64,000 nucleotides of DNA from an uncultured Gammaproteobacteria bacterium (GTDB lineage Bacteria > Patescibacteriota > Microgenomatia > UBA8517), in contig CAZPLB010000003.1 in the NCBI GenBank assembly GCA_964587425.1, positions 60,763 to 124,762 on the forward strand, read 5' to 3'. The notes beneath the pieces were generated by a model. It saw nothing but the letters and a program-made list of their open reading frames with translations, was not told the DNA's origin and searched no databases. This document shows positions 1,928-35,506 of the stretch, piece by piece. The first letter of the stretch is position 1. Every line of letters begins with the position of its first letter. Both the position numbers and the translations under genes were made by a program.

Positions 1928-3397
1928 ATGGAAGGCAAGTTCACCCTATTCTTGAAAGGTATATTAATTCTAGTTTTTTTAATTTTAATTGGCCGTCTTG
2001 CTGAACTTCAAATAATAAAAGGGGAATACTATCAGAGTCTTGCCAACAACAACAGAATTAAAAGAGTATCAATCCCAGCCCCAAGAGGCAATATCAAAGC
2101 ACGAGGAGGGGAAATTCTAGTGGGGACAGAAGATGGTAAAAGATTCTACCCACTTGGAAGTCTAGCTGCCCATTTAACAGGATATGTAGCAAAAGCCCAA
2201 GTAAGTGAGATAGGGAAGGTAGACCCAAGTTGTCCAAACAAAGGTCCAAGGAAAGGTGAGAGTTGGATGGGCAGAACTGGATTGGAGGAAGAATACGATT
2301 GCACTCTTCGAGGAATAGATGGAGAAGAACTTTTGGAAATTGATGCAACAGGTCAAGTAGTTAGAAAACTGGGGCAAGAAAATCCAGTTGCGGGAGCTGA
2401 CATAATGACAACTATCGATTACAGTCTCCAGAAAAAAGTTGGAATGTCCATCAAAGCTGCAGGGGCAATTGTTGCAACCAATGGAGGTGGCCAAATCCTT
2501 GCATTCTATTCCTCCCCATCATTTAATCCAGAAAAAATAGAAAGTTCGCTAAATAACCCACAACTCCCACTTTTCAATCGCGTATTGGATGGTCTTTACC
2601 ATCCTGGTTCCACTTTCAAAATAGTAACTTCAGTAGCCGGTCTTGAAGAAAAGAAAATTGACGAAAACTTTCTCTACAATGACCAGGGAGTAATTAAGAT
2701 TAATGATTTTTCATATTCAAACTGGTACTTCTCACAATATGGAAGAGTAGAGGGAGAAGTAAACCTAACAAAGGCAATTGCCAGGTCAACCGATACGTTC
2801 TTTTACAAACTCGGTGAAATGGTTGGGATAGAGGACCTTGCTGGTTGGTCAGTAAAGTTTGGACTAAACAAAAAGACCGGTGTTGACCTTCCAAATGAAG
2901 CAGAAGGATTAATTCCAGACCCTGCATGGAAGAGAAAAGTAAAAGGGGAACTTTGGTTTCTTGGGGACACTTACAATGTATCAATCGGCCAAGGAGATGT
3001 TGCAATCACACCTCTAGCAGTAAATATGCTAGCCTCAGTCATCGCAAATGGCGGAAAGGTTTGCAAGCCATATATTAATCATAACGTAGAAGGCAGTTGT
3101 AAAGATCTAAATTTAAAACCAGACACATTAAACCTAATAAAAGAAGGAATGAAGGAAGCCTGTTCAACTGGGGGAACAGGAGTACCATTTTTTGGATTCC
3201 AACCCCAAGTAGCATGTAAAACAGGAACTGCAGAAACAAGTGAAAAAGATGTAACCCATGCATGGTTTGCAGTATTTGCCCCAATTGAGAATCCTGAGAT
3301 AGTTCTTGATGTTTTGGTTGAAAAAGGGGGAGAAGGGTCAAAAGTAGCGGCTCCAATTGCAAAAGATATCCTCACTTACTATTTTGGAAGAAAATAA
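1928..3397 (+). CDS. mrdA: Penicillin-binding protein 2 (transpeptidase), short form
   Basis: 489 aa with N-terminal TM anchor. Transpeptidase motifs SXXK (GSTFK) and KTG (KTGTAE) present; dimerisation plus TP domain architecture. Confidence 0.85.
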   Translation: MEGKFTLFLKGILILVFLILIGRLAELQIIKGEYYQSLANNNRIKRVSIPAPRGNIKARGGEILVGTEDGKRFYPLGSLAAHLTGYVAKAQVSEIGKVDPSCPNKGPRKGESWMGRTGLEEEYDCTLRGIDGEELLEIDATGQVVRKLGQENPVAGADIMTTIDYSLQKKVGMSIKAAGAIVATNGGGQILAFYSSPSFNPEKIESSLNNPQLPLFNRVLDGLYHPGSTFKIVTSVAGLEEKKIDENFLYNDQGVIKINDFSYSNWYFSQYGRVEGEVNLTKAIARSTDTFFYKLGEMVGIEDLAGWSVKFGLNKKTGVDLPNEAEGLIPDPAWKRKVKGELWFLGDTYNVSIGQGDVAITPLAVNMLASVIANGGKVCKPYINHNVEGSCKDLNLKPDTLNLIKEGMKEACSTGGTGVPFFGFQPQVACKTGTAETSEKDVTHAWFAVFAPIENPEIVLDVLVEKGGEGSKVAAPIAKDILTYYFGRK

Positions 3398-3406
3398 TGC
3401 CGGTAC

Positions 3407-3435
3407 TTGACAATATGTACATTATGTACTAATAT
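3407..3435 (+). promoter_or_regulatory. Sigma70-like promoter (TTGACA-17-TAATAT) with embedded 13-bp palindrome GTACATTATGTAC
   Basis: TTGACA at 3407-3412, 17-nt spacer, TAATAT at 3430-3435, ATG of phd at 3445. The perfect palindrome 3417-3429 lies in the spacer and is a likely TA autoregulatory operator. Confidence 0.45.
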
Positions 3436-3444
3436 AACTTTATT

Positions 3445-3714
3445 ATGACAACAATAGTTTCTTTCACTGATTTTAGGAACGATCTCTCCAAATACATAGA
3501 TTATTTGAAAAAAGGTAACGAAGTAATCATTAAAAACACAAAGAAGGACGAAGAATTGGTAACTTTGGTGGCAAAAAAGGATGAAGAATTTGATTGGGAT
3601 GAATATATGAAATTTGTAAGAAATTTTAAGCCAGTTTTCACAGACAAGGATGTGGAAGCAATAACAAAAGCAAGAAAAGCAACAAATAAGAGACTAAGAG
3701 ACTTAGATTGGTAA
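3445..3714 (+). CDS. Phd/YefM-family antitoxin
   Basis: 89 aa; N-terminus 'TIVSFTDFRNDLSKYIDYL' is typical of Phd/YefM. Ends 3 nt before the PIN toxin gene. Confidence 0.7.
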   Translation: MTTIVSFTDFRNDLSKYIDYLKKGNEVIIKNTKKDEELVTLVAKKDEEFDWDEYMKFVRNFKPVFTDKDVEAITKARKATNKRLRDLDW

Positions 3715-3717
3715 CAA

Positions 3718-4095
3718 ATGAAAATTATTGTTGATACTTCGGTTATTATTGAGTTTCTTCGTACAGGAAAAGGGGTGTATGTAGACCTCATGGAAAAAGC
3801 TAGTAAAAAATCAGCAGTGGTTTATGTACCTGCAGTGGTAGTTTTGGAACTTTGGAAAGGTCAAAGTATGAAAAATTCAGAGACCGAAAAAAGGGTTGAA
3901 AAAATCTTGTTGCCAATGAAAAGTGTAGATCTTACTAAACAGCTTGCAAAAAAAGCTGGAACAATTATAAGAGAGAATAATATGGATGATTTTTTAGACT
4001 CAGTAGTTGCAGCTGCTGCACTGTATTTAGATGCTAGTGTTGCAACACTTAATAAAAAACATTTCACAAAAATAAAGGGCTTGAAATTACTTTAA
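3718..4095 (+). CDS. vapC: PIN-domain toxin VapC
   Basis: 125 aa; 'KIIVDTSVIIEF' with the conserved acidic Asp near the N-terminus, and later acidic residues typical of PIN; translationally coupled to Phd. Confidence 0.7.
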   Translation: MKIIVDTSVIIEFLRTGKGVYVDLMEKASKKSAVVYVPAVVVLELWKGQSMKNSETEKRVEKILLPMKSVDLTKQLAKKAGTIIRENNMDDFLDSVVAAAALYLDASVATLNKKHFTKIKGLKLL

Positions 4096-4665
4096 CTCAC
4101 TATTTTTGGAGGAATTCATATCTTCCTCAAACAGCTCAGAAAGTTTCAAAAACCCTTCTTTAATACCCTCCGACCATTTTGGCACATATTCCACACCTAC
4201 TGAATCGAATAGTTGAAATATTACAGACACATCTTGCTTAACTTCGGGATAATTTCCATACATCACAACTATTTTTGTACCCGTCAGCGCAGCTTTTAAT
4301 ATACGATTACTCATTTCTCTAAGTGTTGAATCATCAGATGTGGAAACCATATGTATTAGAGCTCCATCAAATTCCTCCTCAGTCAAAGAGACATCAAGAT
4401 GTTTAAAGCTTTGTTTTGAAAAAATTCTGATTCCAGCTCTTGCAATGTAGTCAGGAAGATTATTGGTAATCCACGGAGAATCAATAATTAGTACTTTTTT
4501 ATCTCTAAGTGTCTCAAGCTTTGTTTCGGTTTTTAGTGCTTCAAGCCTCCTAAAAGTTAAGAAGAGTTGATCTAATCTTTTCTCACTGACATCTTTAGAC
4601 ATTCTTCTGTTAACTGATTCCATAGTGTGGTCGATTTTTTCAATTCTTTCATTTCCCAAAGCCAT
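4087..4665 (-). CDS. Hypothetical protein
   Basis: 192-aa ORF with no recognisable motif; convergent with vapC, overlapping it by 9 nt. Confidence 0.45.
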   Translation of the reverse strand: MALGNERIEKIDHTMESVNRRMSKDVSEKRLDQLFLTFRRLEALKTETKLETLRDKKVLIIDSPWITNNLPDYIARAGIRIFSKQSFKHLDVSLTEEEFDGALIHMVSTSDDSTLREMSNRILKAALTGTKIVVMYGNYPEVKQDVSVIFQLFDSVGVEYVPKWSEGIKEGFLKLSELFEEDMNSSKNSELK

Positions 4666-5516: not shown

Positions 5517-7496
5517 ATGCAATTAATTATTGTTGAGTCGCCAACCAAAGCAAAGACACTTGGTAAATTTCTTGGAAAAGATTACCAGGTAGAGGCAACC
5601 ATGGGCCATATCAAAGATCTCCCCAAGTCAAAGCTTGGAATTGATATTGAAAATAATTTCAAACCAGATTATGTTGAAATGCCAAAGAAAGTTGATACCA
5701 TCAAAAATCTCCAAAAGATAGCTAAAAATGCAGAAGTGATATTTATAGCTACAGACCCTGATCGTGAGGGGGAAGCCATAGCAAGTCATGTCAAAGAAAT
5801 TGTAGGAAATGGTAAAACAAAACGTGTTACCTTCCATGAAATTACAAAGGAAGCTGTTGAAGATGCCATTGCCCACCCAAAGGAAATTGATGAAAACCTA
5901 GTTGATGCACAAATTGGAAGACGAGTGTTAGATCGCCTTGTTGGCTATGAACTCTCTCCCTTGCTATGGAGAAAAATAAGAAGAGGATTGTCAGCAGGCC
6001 GTGTTCAATCAGTTGCAGTAAGACTCATTGTTGAAAAAGAAAAAGAAATTGAAAAGTTTAAAGCAGAGGAATACTGGGAAATATTCTCTGTTGTGAAATC
6101 AAAAAAAGAATTCACAGTTCAGTTGATGAAGACAAAGGTCACAGATAAAAAGAAGGCAGATGAAGTAGTAGGAGACTTAAAAAAAGCAAAACACATCGTC
6201 TCAGGTGTTAAAAAAAGAGAAGTATCAAAAAATCCATATCCACCATTTACCACCTCCACCATGACCCAATCTGGAGCCAGAGTCTTTGGTTGGAGTGCAA
6301 AGAGAACAATGAGTGTAGCCCAGAAGCTATATGAAAAAGGTTTAATTACATATCACAGAACCGACTCAACAAATATTGCTGCTGTTGCCATTACAAAATC
6401 AAGAGATTTCATAAAAACAAATTATGGAGAAAAATATTTACCAGCCACTCCAAAGTTTTACAAAATAAAATCCAAAGTCGCACAGGAAGCCCATGAAGCA
6501 ATTCGTCCAACAAATATAAATAAAGAATTAAGTGAAAAAATCCCAGCTGATTTCAAAAAATTATATGACCTCATTTGGAGAAGATTTATGGCCTGCCAAA
6601 TGAACCCATCCATCTATGATGAAACGGCAATTGATGTCACTGCAAATGAATACAAATTAAGAGCCTCAGGCCAGATAATGAAATTTGATGGATGGAGAAA
6701 AGTAATTCCTTCAAAAATGACAGAAGAAGGCGGTATTGAATTGCCTGAAGTAAAAGCAGGTGAAGAACTCGAGCTTGTAAGAGTTGACTCATTTCAAAAG
6801 TTCACCCAACCGCCAGCTAGATTTAATGAGGCGTCCCTCATTAAAATGCTTGAAAAGTTAGGAATAGGGAGACCTTCAACATATGCCCCAATTATTACTA
6901 CAATTCAAATAAGGCAGTATGTAGAAAAAAAGGAGAGACAGTTTTTTGCAACCTCAGTCGGAATTGCAGTAACAGAATTTCTTCTTGAAAATTTCCCAGA
7001 AGTTCTGGATTACAAATTCACGGCCGATATGGAAGATGATTTAGATAAAGTTGCAAATGGAGAAAGAGACTGGCAGAAAGAAATAAAAACTTTCTACAAG
7101 CCATTTCACAAAAAACTAACAAGTGTCACCAAAAACTCAAAGAGGGTAGCTATCCCCACAGAAAAATTGGGGAGAGAGTGTCCTGAATGTAAAACGGCAA
7201 GAGAGGCAGGGGATAAAAATAGAAATGGGGAATTGGTAATTAGAGTTGGAAGATTTGGAAAATTTATTTCCTGCTCACTCTTTCCAGAATGCAAATACAC
7301 AGAGAAGTTCTTAGAAAAAATAGGGATGACATGCCCGGACTGTAAAGAGGGGGAAGTGATAGTTAAAAAAACTGGAAAAGGAAGACCATTCTTTGGCTGC
7401 AGCCGTTACCCAGATTGTAAATGGGCCAGTTGGAAAAATCCTAAGCTGGCCTCTCAGGATAATAAGTCTCCCAAAAAATCCGATAATGCAGTTTGA
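5517..7496 (+). CDS. topA: DNA topoisomerase I
   Basis: 659 aa; TOPRIM N-terminus 'IIVESPTKAKT', active-site Tyr region, C-terminal Cys4 zinc ribbons (CPECK...C...C, CPDCK...C...C); TGA stop. Confidence 0.9.
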   Translation: MQLIIVESPTKAKTLGKFLGKDYQVEATMGHIKDLPKSKLGIDIENNFKPDYVEMPKKVDTIKNLQKIAKNAEVIFIATDPDREGEAIASHVKEIVGNGKTKRVTFHEITKEAVEDAIAHPKEIDENLVDAQIGRRVLDRLVGYELSPLLWRKIRRGLSAGRVQSVAVRLIVEKEKEIEKFKAEEYWEIFSVVKSKKEFTVQLMKTKVTDKKKADEVVGDLKKAKHIVSGVKKREVSKNPYPPFTTSTMTQSGARVFGWSAKRTMSVAQKLYEKGLITYHRTDSTNIAAVAITKSRDFIKTNYGEKYLPATPKFYKIKSKVAQEAHEAIRPTNINKELSEKIPADFKKLYDLIWRRFMACQMNPSIYDETAIDVTANEYKLRASGQIMKFDGWRKVIPSKMTEEGGIELPEVKAGEELELVRVDSFQKFTQPPARFNEASLIKMLEKLGIGRPSTYAPIITTIQIRQYVEKKERQFFATSVGIAVTEFLLENFPEVLDYKFTADMEDDLDKVANGERDWQKEIKTFYKPFHKKLTSVTKNSKRVAIPTEKLGRECPECKTAREAGDKNRNGELVIRVGRFGKFISCSLFPECKYTEKFLEKIGMTCPDCKEGEVIVKKTGKGRPFFGCSRYPDCKWASWKNPKLASQDNKSPKKSDNAV

Positions 7497-8107
7497 GTTG
7501 CTTGACTATTCCTTTGCCTTGCCTCTCTACTTTTAATTACAACCTCTTTCGACTGAGTGATGGCCAACTTAAGTAATTCTTGAATCTTATCAACTTTATC
7601 CAAATTTGTAGCCACCAATCTTGCAGGTTTATCTTCACATGGAATAAACAACCCACCAAAATGCAAATGTTCAACAGAATCATAAGGCCTTAACTCAACT
7701 CTTTTCCCGTTTGTGTATTCATCGCGATAAGTCTTTTTGAACACATCAAGAATTGTAGGATCAATAAAATGTATAGATGTTGATAACTCGTGATAATCTA
7801 TTACCGCAAAAGCCTGTTGTCCACCTATCTCAAAAGGTATCATCCAACCTACAACTTCACCAAAATCCTCTTGTTCTTCTTTTTTTACTTTGTATTTGTC
7901 AGTATCTGAAGAAACATCCCCAGTATGTTCTACTGAAACTTTCTCAACTTGATCTCTTTTGGGATTCCATAATTCATTCAAAGCACCAGCCTCTTGAAGT
8001 ACTTGGATTGCCTCTTTTGCATGTTTTAAAGTATCTGCGTTATTTATGCCCAGCAACATTTCAAGACCGTTAGCTCCACTATCTTTTTCTTTTGACCCCA
8101 TAGTCAT
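7454..8107 (-). CDS. Hypothetical protein
   Basis: 217-aa ORF with no recognisable domain; its 3' end overlaps the topA 3' end by 43 nt (convergent). Confidence 0.5.
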   Translation of the reverse strand: MTMGSKEKDSGANGLEMLLGINNADTLKHAKEAIQVLQEAGALNELWNPKRDQVEKVSVEHTGDVSSDTDKYKVKKEEQEDFGEVVGWMIPFEIGGQQAFAVIDYHELSTSIHFIDPTILDVFKKTYRDEYTNGKRVELRPYDSVEHLHFGGLFIPCEDKPARLVATNLDKVDKIQELLKLAITQSKEVVIKSREARQRNSQATQTALSDFLGDLLS

Positions 8108-28025: not shown

Positions 28026-28481
28026 ATGGTACAACTCAAACAAACTGCAAAACAGGCAGCCATAGCTACAGCTAAAATTATTGCCCGTGAAAGTTCAGAA
28101 ACTCTTAAATCAGCAAAAACACAATTTGGAATAGAGTCCACTCCCCAAAAAGCTGAAAAGAAAGAAGAACCAAAATCTCAAGAAGTTGAATTAAACAAAG
28201 CAAAATTAAGAAACCAAAGTGTTCGCCAAGTTCAAGCTTTAGAAAAAGAACTTGAAGATATACAAAGGATGAAGCTTCAGAGAAAACAAGAAGAACTACA
28301 GCAGGAAGAAATGAGAAAACAAGAAGAGGCAAGATCCAAAGAAACTGCAGCACCTGAAATACAAAGCAAAAAAGGAAGACGCATGATGGGGGCAATGAAA
28401 AAAGCAAAGACAACAGTTGTTAATCTTTTCAAGAGTAGAGCACAACAGCAAGTTGAAATGCGCCAACCCCCCTCAAGCTAA
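28026..28481 (+). CDS. Hypothetical K/E/Q-rich coiled-coil protein
   Basis: 151-aa low-complexity charged ORF. Confidence 0.45.
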   Translation: MVQLKQTAKQAAIATAKIIARESSETLKSAKTQFGIESTPQKAEKKEEPKSQEVELNKAKLRNQSVRQVQALEKELEDIQRMKLQRKQEELQQEEMRKQEEARSKETAAPEIQSKKGRRMMGAMKKAKTTVVNLFKSRAQQQVEMRQPPSS

Positions 28482-28565: not shown

Positions 28566-29963
28566 GTGAAACTATATAACTCCCTCACAAAAAAAGTAGA
28601 AGTCTTTGAACCCATTAACCCTCCAAATGTTGGAATGTATACCTGCGGCATTACAGCATATGATTATGCCCATATAGGCCACGGTAGGAAATATACCATG
28701 GATGATATTTTACGACGCAGTCTGGTTTATCAAGGATATAAAGTTAATCACGTTCAAAATGTAACTGATGTAGGGCATTTGAGTTCAGATTCAGATGCAG
28801 GTGAAGACAAACTTGAAAAAGGAGCAGTAAAGCAGGGCAAAACAGTTTGGGAAGTTGCAGAATTCTTTACCGAAAACTTCTACGAGCAAATGGACAAACT
28901 TAACATTTTGCGACCAACTGTAATTTGCAAAGCTACAGATAATATCCCAGAACAAATTGAATTAATTAAAAAAATAATTGCAAATGGTTATGGGTATGAC
29001 ACTCCTGAAGCAGTTTACTTTGATACTCAGAAATTCAAAGGATATGGAGAATTGTTTGGGCAAAAGCTTGAAGAAAAACAAATTGGAGTTCGAGAGGAAG
29101 TTCAAACTGATGAAAACAAAAAGCACCCCGCAGACTTTGCACTATGGTTCAAGCGCGTTGGAAGATTTGCTGACCACACCATGCACTGGAATAGCCCATG
29201 GGGAGATGGGTTTCCGGGTTGGCATATAGAGTGTTCTGCAATGAGCATAAAATATTTAGGTGAACAGTTTGATATCCACACTGGTGGAGAAGACCATCTT
29301 CCCATTCATCACCCCAATGAAATAGCACAATCAGAGGCGGGAACGGGCAAGCATCCATTTGTGAAGTATTGGCTGCATTATGCATTTTTAACTGTAGATG
29401 GAGTAAAGATGAGTAAAAGCCTTGGAAATTTCTATACTGTTGATGATGTAATCAAAAAGGGCGTTAATCCACTAGCCCTCAGATACTTTTACCTTTCTGC
29501 CCACTACAAAAAACCTCTGAACTTTACTTTTGAAGCATTGGAAGGTGCCCAAAACGCTCTCGGAAGACTCAAAAGTACCCTCTCTGAATTAAAAAAAGAA
29601 AAAGAAAGAAACGTTCTCTCTCCAGAAAAAGAAAAAAAGATAGATTTATATAGACAGAAATTCACAGATGCCATTTCAAACGACTTAAATACTCCAGAAG
29701 CTCTCGCTGTAGTTTGGGAAGTAGTAAAAAGCAACATCCCAAGCCTAGATAAATACGACCTTATAATTAGTTTTGATGAAGTTTTGGGTTTAAAGTTAAA
29801 CGAAGAAGAAACTAGCGAGAAACCTGTAGTTACAAAAGAAATGGAAGAGTTAATTAAACAAAGAGAAAACTTCAGAAAAGAAGGGAAGTATGAAGAAGCT
29901 GACAAGATTAGGGAAGAGTTAATGAATTTGGGATATACTGTAAAAGATGCCCCAGCCAAATAG
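28566..29963 (+). CDS. cysS: Cysteinyl-tRNA synthetase
   Basis: 465 aa; class-I 'HIGH' (AHIGHGRK) and 'KMSKS' (KMSKSLGN); Cys/His zinc ligands present. Confidence 0.9.
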   Translation: MKLYNSLTKKVEVFEPINPPNVGMYTCGITAYDYAHIGHGRKYTMDDILRRSLVYQGYKVNHVQNVTDVGHLSSDSDAGEDKLEKGAVKQGKTVWEVAEFFTENFYEQMDKLNILRPTVICKATDNIPEQIELIKKIIANGYGYDTPEAVYFDTQKFKGYGELFGQKLEEKQIGVREEVQTDENKKHPADFALWFKRVGRFADHTMHWNSPWGDGFPGWHIECSAMSIKYLGEQFDIHTGGEDHLPIHHPNEIAQSEAGTGKHPFVKYWLHYAFLTVDGVKMSKSLGNFYTVDDVIKKGVNPLALRYFYLSAHYKKPLNFTFEALEGAQNALGRLKSTLSELKKEKERNVLSPEKEKKIDLYRQKFTDAISNDLNTPEALAVVWEVVKSNIPSLDKYDLIISFDEVLGLKLNEEETSEKPVVTKEMEELIKQRENFRKEGKYEEADKIREELMNLGYTVKDAPAK

Positions 29964-30582
29964 CCAAAGACCAATCTACATCATTTTAATTCTCGCAATT
30001 ATCATTTCCATTGGCGGATTAGTATTTTCCCAGATGCAGCTTTCCCAGTTAAAGGAAGAAGTGTTTGTATTAACAAATTCGCCGTATAACCAATATGTTT
30101 CACCAACTCCATATGAACCTCAAATATCCATAACTCCAACCCCAAATGCACTGCCAGCAACCCCAACACCAACTCCAAAACCAACCGCAACTCCATTAGC
30201 TGTATCTCAATTCCCAAAAACTGTTTACGTACCCTTAGGTGGAGGAGGAAATACCCAAGCAACAGACTGGGTAGATGTTCCAAATGATGAGGTATGGCTT
30301 GATTTTGGTTCAGAATTTGGAAGTAAGGCCAAAGCAGTTTTTGAAGGAATCTTGAGAGTAGACAATGCAAATGGAACTGCATATGCAAGACTCATAGATG
30401 CAACTCATGGCATTGCAGTTAATGGTTCAGAAATAAGTTTGGAGAATAATTCACAGTTTAGTTTGAGTGTTTCGGGAAACCTTACTTTCTGGGCTGGGAA
30501 GAATTTGTATAAAGTTCAAATCAAATCTCTAAATTCCTCAACAATATATCTTGATTCAGCAAGGATTAAAGTAAGCTATTGA
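29947..30582 (+). CDS. Membrane-anchored protein with Pro/Thr-rich linker and extracytoplasmic beta-rich domain
   Basis: 211 aa; TM helix 'IYIILILAIIISIGGLVF', then 'TPTPNALPATPTPTPKPTATP' linker; globular C-terminal domain unassigned. Confidence 0.5.
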   Translation: MPQPNSQRPIYIILILAIIISIGGLVFSQMQLSQLKEEVFVLTNSPYNQYVSPTPYEPQISITPTPNALPATPTPTPKPTATPLAVSQFPKTVYVPLGGGGNTQATDWVDVPNDEVWLDFGSEFGSKAKAVFEGILRVDNANGTAYARLIDATHGIAVNGSEISLENNSQFSLSVSGNLTFWAGKNLYKVQIKSLNSSTIYLDSARIKVSY

Positions 30583-30615
30583 TTACGAATATCTAGTCTA
30601 GTAGAATACCTACAC

Positions 30616-32697
30616 TTGATGGAACTCTATCCAATTAGGTATAAATCTCCGATTTTAGATGCCAATGGGCAAATACAGGACTTTCATGAAGTTGAAGTTT
30701 ATCCAACCTCTCTAACTGATAGAGTGATAGCTTCGCAATCTCCAATAGAACAAGAAAGATTAGTAAGAAAACAGCTCACTTATCAAAGAGAATCAGTGGC
30801 AAATTTTGTGGGATTAGAAAAAGATGTAGAAATTACTTCGACAACACTCCATCTTGCCGAGTTAGCACTGGATCTAGAGGCAAGATCTTTCCACACAAAC
30901 TATTTAAAAGCACGTTATGGAGAAGCACGAAGTATTTACGAAACTGACAAGAAAGTACTGAAAGGTAAGAGGAAATACAATAGGGTGGAACAATGGCAAA
31001 AAGAAAAAAATACATGGGAACAGATTATTGATGATGCCAAGATTTTGGAGGGCTGCATTGCCAATATTATTGTAAAAGATTTTTTTTTGACAGAAGGTGG
31101 CATAGGACAACTCGAAATAGCAATTGAAGAGATCAGAGAAAGTGCCCCTGAATCTATAGAGAATATAAGAAAACTGTTGGGTTTCGCATCAGAGTCTCTA
31201 GGAGAAACTAGAATAATAAAAGACCCATCTGGATTTAGATATAAAACTCAAGATGGACAAACAATTACATCCCAGACAGATGGTGTATTAAAATCGATTA
31301 CGGAAAGAGCGTTTGACCCTCAAGAGAAGGATCCTGTATCTAATGGAATAAGTGAAATCTCACAAGAAATCTTAGAGTTCTACTGGAAAAACGCCACAAG
31401 TGTATTAGATAAGTCGGAATATCCTCTAATTTCAATCACATACGATATTCTTTACTCTGCAAGTGATACGTTTAACCCCGAACTTTTTACACTTTGCATG
31501 ACTTGGTTAAACAGCAAAATTAATTCTCACAAAAATCGCTACTCCACCGAGTTCAATCTTTTCGTGGACCATTGTTTTCAGGATTTTTTGAAACAAACCA
31601 GGACTACCCTGCATTCAAATTTAAGATTCAGACCTGATATTTCCGAGGAACAAAAAATCCTAGAAGGTATACAAACTGTTCAAAGTTTTTGGGTATTTAC
31701 TCAAAACAAAAAGGGTGTGTTTGTAGTCAGTGGAGACGAAAACAGATTTAAATCACTTAGCGACGACGAACAGAGAGTGCTTACTCAATTAATAGATCAC
31801 TCTGCTTTTACTGCATATTTAATGGATTCCGTCACATCAAATGTCAGCTCATTCCTGCCAGAACATATGATAAATAATAGGTTGCTTGAATTAAATTTAC
31901 TATCAGCCGCATTGAGGGATTATGAAGAAGCTGGATTATTGAGACACATTTTAAATAAAGACGAATTAATAGAAGAAGGCAACTTAACGAATCTTTTTGG
32001 AACTAAAACCAATAAGATGGAGCCCAAAAATTACATTGTTAGGCACAAAGAATTACAAGATCAATATAAAAATATTAGGGATAACTATCAATATTTTATT
32101 GCTCTTAATGGCGACCAGTTTATTGCACAGTATGACGAAGACCTAAGAATAAATGGTGTGCAAAGTATTACTTTTTTTTCAATTCACAGCAGACCACAGA
32201 GCCACAAGGTTATTATTCGCACAAACGAAGTATCTGCCACATTTTATATCAGTGAAAACGGTAATCTCATGCACCCTTCAGGAAAACAAACAAGATTACC
32301 ACTTTATGTTGTAAACAAGATTACAAATATTATTTTCTCCAGACTCGAATACATAACGAGCGGGGAAGCATTTCGTGGACAAAATGAAAACGGAGACACA
32401 ATAGAAAGAGAGGATAAACAGGCAAGATTAATACTCGCACGAAGATCTCATTGGAGGAAGTTGCCAGGAGATAGATACACACTTGAATCTAAAACCGCAA
32501 AAGAACATATACAAGAGGTGTTCGAAGATTACGGTATCAGTACCTGGCAGGAAATCCTAAGGAGAAGAGTAAAAGGAACTTTATCCCCTCAAGAAGTAAT
32601 GACTTATGTCAAAACGGTCCTAAAACCAGGAGCCGAACCAAATATTATAAAATATGAACCAAATTCAAAAGTTGCAACTTCCCAGTCTAACTTGTAA
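30616..32697 (+). CDS. Large orphan cytoplasmic protein (693 aa)
   Basis: Uninterrupted 693-aa ORF with no TM segments and no recognisable motifs. Confidence 0.55.
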   Translation: MMELYPIRYKSPILDANGQIQDFHEVEVYPTSLTDRVIASQSPIEQERLVRKQLTYQRESVANFVGLEKDVEITSTTLHLAELALDLEARSFHTNYLKARYGEARSIYETDKKVLKGKRKYNRVEQWQKEKNTWEQIIDDAKILEGCIANIIVKDFFLTEGGIGQLEIAIEEIRESAPESIENIRKLLGFASESLGETRIIKDPSGFRYKTQDGQTITSQTDGVLKSITERAFDPQEKDPVSNGISEISQEILEFYWKNATSVLDKSEYPLISITYDILYSASDTFNPELFTLCMTWLNSKINSHKNRYSTEFNLFVDHCFQDFLKQTRTTLHSNLRFRPDISEEQKILEGIQTVQSFWVFTQNKKGVFVVSGDENRFKSLSDDEQRVLTQLIDHSAFTAYLMDSVTSNVSSFLPEHMINNRLLELNLLSAALRDYEEAGLLRHILNKDELIEEGNLTNLFGTKTNKMEPKNYIVRHKELQDQYKNIRDNYQYFIALNGDQFIAQYDEDLRINGVQSITFFSIHSRPQSHKVIIRTNEVSATFYISENGNLMHPSGKQTRLPLYVVNKITNIIFSRLEYITSGEAFRGQNENGDTIEREDKQARLILARRSHWRKLPGDRYTLESKTAKEHIQEVFEDYGISTWQEILRRRVKGTLSPQEVMTYVKTVLKPGAEPNIIKYEPNSKVATSQSNL

Positions 32698-32706
32698 AGT
32701 TAAAGC

Positions 32707-33510
32707 ATGAGAAAGATATTCTTAATCCTAGTATTCACTTTTTTAACACTAGGTACCTTCAAAAGCGTAAAAGCCCAAACCTTTGACTATAATCGTGCAT
32801 ACCAGGATTATGTATATAACCTTAGTCTCTACCAGAAAGCACACACTGATTACCAACTGGCAAGAGCTGCGTACCTGCAGTCCCAAACTTCAGGAACAAC
32901 AGGAGATGCAGTTAAAGCAACACGTACTATGCTTGAGGCCAGAGATAGTGTAGTAATCACATATCTTACAGCTATTCGTATGAAGCTTCTTGAAACAAAA
33001 GGAGTAAGTGATTCTGAAAAATCAGGTTACTTCACCCAAATTGATACAGAAGTATCATGGTGGGGAAGCCACAAAGCAAGGTTAGAGAGTGCCGGAAGCC
33101 TAGATGACTTAGTATCCGATTCAGATGAAGCAAAAGATCACTTTGGACCAGCAAAGATATTAATGTATCAAACATTAATTGAAATTGGAGTAAGTGAAAC
33201 AACATATCAAAGAACTGCAATGAAATCAGTAATTGATCTTTTAAATCAAAAAATTGCAGAAATACGCTTGAATGGTGACAAAGACACCACCTCAATTGAA
33301 AGATTTTTAGTTGAAGTAAATAATAAACTAAGTAGAAGTGAAGTGAAAGAAGGAGAGGCTAAAAACATAGTTAGTTCCATAAAACCAACAACCCAGGACA
33401 CATCAAGCGCTTTCCAAACTGCAGTATCAGATGTTGAAGATTCTCTTTTGTACCTGAAGGAAGCAAACAAGAATTTGAAAGAAATTGTAACTCAGATAAA
33501 AACAAACTAA
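32707..33510 (+). CDS. Secreted alpha-helical hypothetical protein
   Basis: 267 aa; cleavable-looking signal peptide 'MRKIFLILVFTFLTLGTFKSVKA|Q'. Confidence 0.5.
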   Translation: MRKIFLILVFTFLTLGTFKSVKAQTFDYNRAYQDYVYNLSLYQKAHTDYQLARAAYLQSQTSGTTGDAVKATRTMLEARDSVVITYLTAIRMKLLETKGVSDSEKSGYFTQIDTEVSWWGSHKARLESAGSLDDLVSDSDEAKDHFGPAKILMYQTLIEIGVSETTYQRTAMKSVIDLLNQKIAEIRLNGDKDTTSIERFLVEVNNKLSRSEVKEGEAKNIVSSIKPTTQDTSSAFQTAVSDVEDSLLYLKEANKNLKEIVTQIKTN

Positions 33511-33514
33511 AAAT

Positions 33515-33985
33515 ATGCCAGACATTTTAAACCAAAATACAACACCAGTTCCACCATCAGCGCCAATTGTGCCTCCTGTAAAGCCGAAATTGACACTTGC
33601 CTTACCTCAAGGCGTAAAAAACATAGCCTCAGACAAGTTAGTTGTAGTAAAACAGAAACTAAATGGATTAGATCCAAAAAGAAAAAAGATTGTTATAGGT
33701 ATTGGAGTTCTTTTTGCAGTTATATTCCTTCTCCTTCTTTTAAATATAGTGGCAGCCATGTTCAGGCGTCCATCAGCCCCAGCACCATCTCCAACTCCGG
33801 TGAATACCAATCAAGGGAGTCCTAATCCAATCATAATCACAAATCCAAGCCGTTATGCAACAGATGAAGGAGTATTAAAAATTGAAAGTAATTTAAATGA
33901 GATAGAGAAGAGTCTTAATGCTATTAATCCTCAGCATCCAGAAATTGCTGTTCCAGACCTGGATTACAACATTAAATTTCAGTAA
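33515..33985 (+). CDS. Membrane-anchored hypothetical protein with Pro-rich linker
   Basis: 156 aa; TM 'IVIGIGVLFAVIFLLLLLNIVAAMF', then a 'PSAPAPSPTP' linker. Confidence 0.45.
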   Translation: MPDILNQNTTPVPPSAPIVPPVKPKLTLALPQGVKNIASDKLVVVKQKLNGLDPKRKKIVIGIGVLFAVIFLLLLLNIVAAMFRRPSAPAPSPTPVNTNQGSPNPIIITNPSRYATDEGVLKIESNLNEIEKSLNAINPQHPEIAVPDLDYNIKFQ

Positions 33986-34005: not shown

Positions 34006-34377
34006 TCAAAAACTAATCTTCTTGAGGTTAAAAGCTGGTACTTCTTCCCTTGGCTCAGAATAGTTATTTGTAGGCGTAGTATGGTTCTTGATAATGAGCC
34101 CAATACTATCTATCTGAGGGAATGTTTTTCTAATTTCTTCCTGAAATTTCCCAGCCAAACCACCGGAATAGCTGCCATATCCATTGGCCTCGCTTCGTCC
34201 GCACAGTTTATCTTCCCAAGTTCGAATTACAGACTGTATCTTCTCACCAATTTTATTAAACTCAGTCTGAAGATTTTCAGGGTTCAGTGCATATTCATCG
34301 TGAATCTTTTTGAATTCATCAAAAAGATCTTTATTGTTTGTAAGCATTAACTCGTAATACTCTTTATATTTTGTCAT
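34006..34377 (-). CDS. Hypothetical protein
   Basis: 123-aa ORF with no domain recognised. Confidence 0.4.
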   Translation of the reverse strand: MTKYKEYYELMLTNNKDLFDEFKKIHDEYALNPENLQTEFNKIGEKIQSVIRTWEDKLCGRSEANGYGSYSGGLAGKFQEEIRKTFPQIDSIGLIIKNHTTPTNNYSEPREEVPAFNLKKISF

Positions 34378-34429: not shown

Positions 34430-35506
34430 TCAAGATGTAGCAAGTAGTTTTTTAATTGCCCGAGCTATCTTGTCAGAATCATGGCGTGCCAAACTTCTTG
34501 TTAATTTATCACTTTTTGGTTTTTCGTAAATTACATCCGAAATTAAGTTGCGCCTGCTTATCTTCATTTTTTTATATTTACTGTCCAAATCATCAATAAC
34601 AGGTTCCGATAATTCCTCTCTGTATTTTCTTAAAATCTTTGGAGGAATATTAATAGAATTGTTAATTAGACAGTAATTAACTCTATCTTTGCCAATATAT
34701 TTCTCGACTTCAGAAATAAAATCACTTGCCTTAAATTTTCCAGTTTGTCCAAACTTGGTCATAAGATTCATTACATAGATAACCTTTGCTTTAGATTTCT
34801 GTATTGCTTGGGCAATTCCATCAACCACAACATTGGAAAGAGTACTAGTGTAAAGATCTCCAGGACCCAATATTATGAGATCAGCAACTTTTATCTCATT
34901 TAGTGCTTCCTTGTTTGCTTCAACCTGCGGAATCACCTCCAAATTCACAATTCTATACTTCCCCTGCTTCCTATTAATTTCATCTATAGCGTGCTCGCCA
35001 AGAATCTGTTTCCCATTCTCATAGCGTGCAACTAGGTTAGTTTTTTCAAATGTGACAGGAATAACTTTTCCTTTTACTTCAAAAATCTTGCATGTTTCCT
35101 CAATTGCCTTTTCCTGATCACCACCATAAATATCACTCAATGCTGCCATGAATAAGTTTCCAAAAGTCATCCCAGAGATTCCAGTTCCAGAACTATACCT
35201 GTATGTAAAAAGTTTCCTCAAAACCTCATCTGATTCATTCGAAGCAAGCGCCAGAATACATTGCCTAACATCAGAAGTGGGGAGTAATCCAAACTCATCT
35301 CGTATAACTCTGTTGCTCCCTCCATCATCCATCATGGAAACAATAACACTTAAATCAAATTCAGGATATTTTTTTAAACCACTCAAAACTGTGAAGGTTC
35401 CAGTTCCACCGCCAATTGTAACCACCTTCAACTTTCTCAAGGTAAATATAAGTATAGCAATCAAGTCAATATATCTGGTAAAATACAAGTCCATGTTTAA
35501 AAACAA
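34430..35506 (-). CDS. yvcK: YvcK/CofD-like gluconeogenesis-factor family protein (UPF0052); true start probably downstream of 35506
   Basis: 'LKVVTIGGGTGTFTVLSGLKKY...VIVSMMDDGGSNRVIRDEFGLLPTSDVRQCILALAS' matches the YvcK/CofD signature. The annotated start would overlap the divergent MFS start, so it likely uses a later (possibly non-ATG) start. Confidence 0.7.
   Translation of the reverse strand: MFLNMDLYFTRYIDLIAILIFTLRKLKVVTIGGGTGTFTVLSGLKKYPEFDLSVIVSMMDDGGSNRVIRDEFGLLPTSDVRQCILALASNESDEVLRKLFTYRYSSGTGISGMTFGNLFMAALSDIYGGDQEKAIEETCKIFEVKGKVIPVTFEKTNLVARYENGKQILGEHAIDEINRKQGKYRIVNLEVIPQVEANKEALNEIKVADLIILGPGDLYTSTLSNVVVDGIAQAIQKSKAKVIYVMNLMTKFGQTGKFKASDFISEVEKYIGKDRVNYCLINNSINIPPKILRKYREELSEPVIDDLDSKYKKMKISRRNLISDVIYEKPKSDKLTRSLARHDSDKIARAIKKLLATS

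Follow-up and report, generated by a model that had tools for sequence, protein, structure and literature searches.

A conserved cysS-linked envelope gene block of Microgenomates type with a variable slot that holds a member of an undescribed protein family

Results

Here we describe a cluster of four genes, A to D, in a 64-kilobase (kb) stretch of contig CAZPLB010000003.1 (assembly GCA_964587425.1; Patescibacteriota, Microgenomatia), which we call the window; an assembly from SRR9179563 contains the same sequence. The cluster follows cysS (28566..29963), the gene for cysteinyl-tRNA synthetase (CysRS), and all five genes lie on the + strand. A (29947..30582; 211 amino acids, aa) overlaps the cysS stop by 17 nucleotides (nt). 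B (30619..32697) encodes 692 aa from its ATG at 30619, or 693 aa from an alternative TTG start at 30616, and is followed by C (32707..33510; 267 aa) and D (33515..33985; 156 aa), with gaps of 33 nt between A and B, 9 nt between B and C and 4 nt between C and D. The table of open reading frames (ORFs) thus bears out the original prediction of four closely spaced, co-directional genes, the first of them overlapping the cysS stop. None of the four has a significant match in Pfam, NCBIfam, PHROGs or PADLOC. All are real genes and not chance ORFs, since we find more than 130 homologues for A, conservation of C and D in relatives, and 99 family representatives for B. A, C and D belong to a synteny block that is conserved among relatives, and B, a member of a previously unnamed family, occupies a variable slot within this block.

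The block emerged from 37 distinct A-containing loci, which came from contigs encoding A homologues and from GTDB species genomes that we scanned, and were scored with hidden Markov models (HMMs) for cysS, A, B, C and D. In about 32 of the 35 assessable loci cysS, the conserved upstream anchor of the block, lies directly upstream of A, mostly overlapping it; C and D are adjacent in all 20 loci where both could be assessed. A is translationally coupled to cysS, and C and D form an obligate pair. The orthologous cysS genes of relatives carry tRNA-synt_1e/CysS_C Pfam matches, and the wider shared order upstream is yqeY-ybeY-dnaX-(ybaB)-GH39-recR-x-cysS-A. The Microgenomates-type block therefore reads dnaX-ybaB-GH39-recR-x-cysS-A-(slot)-C-D, in which cysS-A and C-D are each tightly linked and often adjoin one another, and in which the junction between A and C is a variable slot. 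In the window, the neighbors around the cluster are cysS, recR, GH39, CofD and MFS genes.

Thirteen loci have A followed directly by C-D, at gaps of up to about 200 nt, with no B (L004, L008, L012, L021, L025, L028, L029, L031-L033, L035, L036 and L039), and C-D is not present within about 8 kb of A in 14 loci. The slot is empty in most loci; something lies between A and C in 8. The commonest occupant is a HAD hydrolase gene (L006, L007, L011 and L034), joined in L007 by a reversed CofD gene and in L006 by a gene of the 23S rRNA intervening-sequence protein family (23S_rRNA_IVP). An unannotated reversed gene sits there in L010, and in L024 (8478-15986) there are five genes, an IS630-type DDE_3 transposase and proteins of 896, 304, 353 and 479 aa without a Pfam match. 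In L017, unannotated genes for 284 and 906 aa come directly after A. B itself is found in the slot only in the window and in L003, where its orthologue is 44-46% identical, and these are the only two loci with A, B, C and D together; the four genes do not make up a single co-conserved operon.

The closest relative, L002, is 93% identical to the window in recR, 88% in GH39 and 78% in A at the amino-acid level. There an unrelated SNF2-like helicase gene comes after A; it encodes more than 836 aa and runs off the end of the contig. The large slot proteins of L002, L017 and L024 were tested as possible relatives of B and are not related to it.

Several smaller observations concern the flanks of the slot. 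In L033 (6348-8357; LBWP01000018.1, Woesebacteria GW2011_GWA1_39_21), a 669-aa ORF joins CysRS and an A-family protein in frame, either as a real fusion of a tRNA synthetase with a membrane protein or through a lost stop codon; the fusion underlines how tightly cysS and A are coupled. In L002, cysS (3021-4412) is only 54% identical to the window gene at 28566-29963, with DNA similarity limited to the 3' half, which suggests a mosaic or replaced 5' region, and an extra gene for 179 aa lies upstream of cysS. Between recR and cysS the window encodes a 151-aa low-complexity protein rich in Lys, Glu and Gln (28026-28481), which has no Pfam match; an unannotated ORF of 138-161 aa holds this position in every relative examined. 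On the other side, the window has a CofD-family gene downstream of D (34430-35506, - strand), and L007 has one inside the A-C slot (6634-7719), which indicates local rearrangement around the block. A 123-aa ORF at 34006-34377 (- strand) has no family match.

B had been described as a large orphan protein without domain matches. The second part stands: B matched nothing in Pfam, NCBIfam, PHROGs, PADLOC or the sequences of the PDB, and it fits no curated family. The first part held as long as the searches were word-indexed, for these returned only B and its L003 orthologue, whether B alone or an alignment of the two was the query. That result is misleading, because the family surfaced only when HMMER was run exhaustively against 1.84 billion cluster representatives, yielding 99 proteins at E<=1e-3 and 85 at E<=1e-10. 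The representatives are mostly 700-830 aa long; for 84 relatives the phmmer E-values range from 1e-172 to 1e-10, and B scores 503 bits against the full-length profile. The few members with names are labelled 'hypothetical protein' by their sources. Among 33 relatives, no Pfam, NCBIfam or PHROG family occurs in more than one, even at E<=0.1, and relatives that are shorter or longer than B carry no fused known domain. B is therefore a member of a previously unnamed and undescribed protein family that lies outside the known kinds.

Similarity within the family centers on the last 200 or so residues of B, with a weaker stretch at residues 77-320. The signature region is a basic C-terminal alpha/beta domain (32083..32664, + strand; residues 489-682) in which His630 is invariant and F493, G498, D499, F519, R575, L576, T580, S581, G582, R609, S624, Y638, G639, R649, G653, T662 and P674 are at least 90% conserved. 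The family-wide motifs [WY]F[VI][AS]..GD.[FY], ITSG, RR[AS]H[YW]R, H[AI].E[IV]...YGI, RRR..GTL and T[FY]V[RK] are all present in B, where they read YFIALNGDQF, ITSG, RRSHWRKL, HIQEV..DYGI, RRRVKGT and TYVK. B has no hydrophobic segment and is predicted to be soluble; it is acidic overall, with an isoelectric point (pI) of 5.8, and its C-terminal domain has a pI of 9.0 against about 5.3 for the rest. Next to one relative, in L048, a 201-aa ORF (2783-3388) directly after the B-family gene matches the N-terminal 170 or so positions of the B profile, best over the first 100 or so (E 5e-13), and is either a partial tandem duplicate or a fragment.

With an alignment of 79 family sequences, AlphaFold returned a confident model of B (mf70855a29cf4), with a predicted local distance difference test (pLDDT) score of 89.3 and a predicted template modeling (pTM) score of 0.90; a model built from a two-sequence alignment reached a pLDDT of 45.7 and was discarded. 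The model has an N-terminal segment (residues 1-33) with a beta-hairpin at 6-27, an all-helical body (34-488) that includes two 40-residue helices, and a C-terminal alpha/beta domain (499-664) whose beta-alpha-alpha-beta unit bears RRSHWR, HIQEV..YGI, RRRVKGT and TYVK. Structure prediction and a fold search had been proposed as a check on B. Foldseek gave no real match to the model in the PDB (best E 0.016, TM-score 0.13) or in BFVD (best E 0.095), and sequence-profile searches of the PDB with B and its family gave nothing. The best structural matches to the helical body are helical-repeat and coiled-coil scaffolds, namely the Ufd2p core (2qiz_A), tubulin cofactor A (1h7c_A), TOG domains and cohesin SA2 (4pk7_A).

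The model also bears on whether B is a gene at all. A spurious or decaying ORF, with the cluster an annotation artefact, could be imagined since the longest ORF starts at TTG and inspection found no evident Shine-Dalgarno-like GGAGG upstream. One codon after that TTG, however, lies an ATG, with which the deposited protein, P0001, begins. Conservation over the full length in 99 cluster representatives, together with a high-confidence, coevolution-supported model, refutes this explanation, to which we assign a negligible probability.

To see where relatives of B reside, we combined a metagenome scan with the WFVSPRGD subfamily and contig look-ups, which gave 13 further distinct loci with usable flanks. 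Comparing all neighbors against all others revealed none that is common across lineages. Immediate neighbors include genes for a C39 peptidase-TPR protein, an amidase, PolX, NfeD, a DUF6624 protein and, in L040, a HepT toxin; elsewhere the neighbors are Obg, riboflavin genes, PIG-L with an IS200 transposase, or a 23S_rRNA_IVP gene that is followed a few genes later by DprA and TopA. The L054 gene is near an IS200-type Y1 transposase gene and that of L057 about 7.5 kb from an integrase gene. C-D lies within 10 kb in only 3 of the 15 B-family loci with usable flanks, and the other 12 have none of A, C or D within that distance; among the 13 further loci, true C-D is nearby only in L041. B-family proteins thus stand alone in unrelated neighborhoods in other small-genome bacteria.

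Judged by hydropathy and direct reading of the sequences, A, C and D reside in the envelope, either anchored in the membrane or outside the cytoplasm, and the original prediction of two anchored proteins with linkers and a secreted one holds. A has a single N-terminal transmembrane (TM) anchor with its N terminus inside (residues 10-28, nt 29974-30030), a Pro/Thr linker (residues 53-85, nt 30103-30201) and, outside the cytoplasm, a conserved C-terminal domain of some 120 aa (WVDV...NANGTAYARL...YKVQIKSLN). Its homologues, of 200-230 aa, occur in Microgenomates, Woesebacteria and other Patescibacteria, and A has no match in Pfam, NCBIfam or the PDB. In the A-family alignment most members have CxxxC just after the TM segment; the window protein has no cysteine at all.

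C begins with a Sec signal, MRKIFLILVFTFLTLGTFKSVKA↓Q (residues 1-23, nt 32707-32775), consisting of MRK, a 15-residue hydrophobic core and a VKA↓Q cleavage site, and on this showing, by inspection and hydropathy, it would be secreted. The signal peptide is kept in five homologues, and C as a whole has no Cys. Relatives are 36-62% identical and share the motifs SAGSLDDLV.DSDEA, of which SAGSLDDLV is invariant, and YLKEA...QIK. C has no significant family match in Pfam or NCBIfam. Its predicted helical character would fit weak coiled-coil-type matches, of which the one in the PDB is compositional. D has a 58-residue Pro-rich cytoplasmic N-terminal tail, then KRKK, a TM segment (residues 59-83, nt 33689-33763) and the predicted Pro-rich linker. 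Its extracytoplasmic motif, PSRYATD.GVLKIE...P.LD, has an invariant PSRYATD in relatives that are 27-35% identical, and D matches no family in Pfam or NCBIfam and nothing in the PDB. Profiles of the A, C and D families likewise retrieved nothing useful from the PDB. An FtsL/DivIC-type division protein was considered and rejected for both anchored proteins: for A, the TIGR02209/FtsL match was confined to the TM segment and, at 11.5 bits (E 0.22), fell short of the cutoff of 42.45, and D gave no match.

The gap between A and B holds a promoter-like site (30579..30607, + strand), TTGATT-17 nt-TAGAAT, which matches 9 of 12 consensus positions and whose -10 element (30602-30607) ends 8-11 nt before the B start codon. 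In L003, TTGCCT-18-TACAAT lies 8 nt before the ATG of the B orthologue, so that the position of the site is conserved with the window, and TATAAT stands 8-9 nt upstream of the B-family gene in L041, L043, L045 and L050. Counting as -10-like any box with at least five of six matches to TATAAT that ends 5-12 nt before the start codon, we find one at 9 of 15 B-family genes and at 36 of 96 control genes. Within the cluster, the + strand shows no terminator-like site. At the level of consensus matches, B probably has its own leaderless-type promoter, with C and D on the same transcript. B would then head a leaderless or near-leaderless transcript that starts in the 33-nt A-B gap, and C-D, at gaps of 9 and 4 nt, would ride on it. 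B would thereby share a transcript with envelope genes in this genome and still not be their conserved functional partner.

Discussion

We lean, by a little better than even, toward a reading of this region as a conserved envelope synteny block in whose variable slot a lineage-specific B resides as an independent protein, not a conserved partner of its neighbors. The original prediction placed all four genes in one operon-like unit with B as the cytoplasmic partner. The cysS-A and C-D pairs, with C-D often right after A, uphold part of that picture, and B does not fit the rest. Failure of the genes to co-occur had been set beforehand as the observation that would speak against such an operon, and B is indeed not co-conserved, being missing from the 13 A-C-D loci and residing without A, C or D in 12 of 15 B-family loci.

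Some of our data weigh against an independent B. It lies at exactly the same place, between A and C, in both the window and L003, even though the two B proteins are only 44-46% identical. In L041, the order is cysS-HAD-C-D, three genes and then a B-family gene, which puts true C-D 2 kb from B. In L048, L050 and L053, signal-peptide/helical and TM/Pro-rich proteins are encoded shortly after B. The slot of L002 can be read only as far as the SNF2-like gene at the contig end, and B could lie beyond it. The density of promoter scan hits equals that expected from shuffled sequence, and the A-B gap site is weak on its own. The case for nucleic-acid binding, which we discuss below, draws on charge and conserved Arg and His residues only, with no fold or motif match. 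B may have some functional tie to a C-D-like pair.

The strongest form of such a tie would make B an assembly factor, chaperone or regulator of a surface apparatus built from A, C and D, with the cluster a single functional operon, possibly for host attachment. The short gaps, the lack of a + strand terminator-like site within the cluster, the retention of B in the L003 slot and the proximity of C-D to B in L041 all agree with this model, as would the secreted-helical and TM/Pro-rich pairs of L048, L050 and L053, and the 58-residue cytoplasmic tail of D could dock a cytoplasmic protein. For those three pairs, however, homology to C and D could not be demonstrated: the hhalign probability is 4% for C, and for D only the TM segment aligns. 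Moreover, A, C and D have no adhesin or pilin signature in Pfam or NCBIfam, 13 loci run from A straight to C-D without B, and the slot often holds unrelated genes. We regard a partnership of this kind as decidedly unlikely.

A second alternative starts from the slot itself. Variable slots between conserved core genes, known as hotspots or islets, collect accessory and defence genes. B could be cargo of such a hotspot at a recombination-prone core-gene junction, whether a single-gene defence or conflict factor or the remnant of a mobile element. The A-C junction resembles these sites in holding unrelated genes in different relatives, among them the SNF2-like helicase of L002, the IS630-type transposase and large proteins of L024 and the two genes of L017. 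The patchy B family, with its heterogeneous contexts and the toxin, transposase and integrase genes seen near some members, would also suit this model. It is offset by the many slot occupants that are ordinary metabolic genes (HAD, CofD), the commonest being a housekeeping-type HAD hydrolase, and by B itself, which has no defence or mobile-element signature: neither B nor the 33 relatives match PADLOC or PHROGs, and no relative was found in IMG/VR with both B subfamily alignments, or in GenBank phages or PLSDB plasmids with B itself. Nor is there a compositional anomaly. The GC content of B, overall and at third codon positions (GC3), equals that of the neighboring genes, which indicates that B is not a recent foreign insertion, and its descent in the window and L003 appears to be vertical.

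A 14-nt inverted repeat (30581-30594 and 32714-32727; GATTACGAATATCT and AGATATTCTTAATC, 93% complementary) brackets B almost exactly and could be taken as the mark of an element, yet the region has 47 inverted-repeat pairs in all and this one is likely due to chance. Neither direct nor inverted repeats point convincingly to an insertion of B, and a search of the entire 64-kb window for possible integration-site marks found no tRNA gene and no Rfam family above its gathering score. Hotspot cargo is in our view an unlikely account of B.

If B is independent, what might it do? As a cytoplasmic protein, it possibly binds nucleic acid. In the mechanism we propose, tentatively and with low confidence, the acidic helical body would serve as a scaffold, and the basic, highly conserved C-terminal domain would be the part that binds a polyanion, most likely nucleic acid, and perhaps processes it. 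Such binding could involve the invariant His630, two Arg clusters (RRSHWR and RRRVKGT), Asp499 and Ser624. By inspection, these Arg/His motifs fit none of the known catalytic signatures considered, namely the Rx4-6H of the HEPN ribonuclease domain superfamily, the phospholipase D-type HKD, the HUH endonucleases, the GS..DxD of nucleotidyltransferases and the tyrosine recombinases.

It is tempting to speculate further that the family is restricted to Patescibacteria and has a new fold, with a C-terminal domain that would be a new nucleic-acid-binding or catalytic module. B may then have been recruited to C-D, for example as a regulator or assembly factor acting on the D tail, or may represent a new single-gene conflict system. 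This fuller scenario seems to us improbable as a whole.

The envelope proteins had been suggested to belong to a host-attachment apparatus, for which we find no support. Type IV pilins are recognized by a prepilin leader with G↓F(T/S)LxE at its end, a hydrophobic helix after it and PilB/PilC/PilD-type neighbors. A and D resemble them in their surface exposure and N-terminal hydrophobic segment, and in coming from an episymbiont lineage. They differ in that neither has the prepilin motif by inspection or a pilin match in Pfam, which also gave no adhesin signature, and in that the cluster has no PilB, PilC or PilD neighbors. In Patescibacteria, it is type IV pili that have experimental support as the apparatus of host attachment (PMC12206443, PMC6744442).

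A closer precedent for A, C and D comes from the 35 families reported as enriched in Microgenomates, which are mostly hypothetical and of which 14 are predicted to be membrane-localized (Meheust et al. 2019, PMC6744442). A, C and D fit this known class of hypothetical membrane or extracellular families: they are lineage-restricted, unannotated, single-TM or secreted, and conserved in Woesebacteria, Blackburnbacteria and other Microgenomates. The match is one of kind and does not map them to specific family numbers of that study. The coupling of cysS to A and the C-D pair with its variable slot come from the present analysis.

The Patescibacteria account for a large part of bacterial diversity and carry many unannotated genes. 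Within this group, an envelope trio, A and C-D, anchored to cysS in Microgenomates and with a variable slot inside it, provides a landmark for comparative genomics. B, an apparent singleton, has become a defined family with a structural model. With a high-confidence model, a conserved candidate active or binding site formed by His630, Arg609, Asp499, Ser624 and Arg649, and no fold relative in the PDB or BFVD, B is a target for structural and biochemical work.

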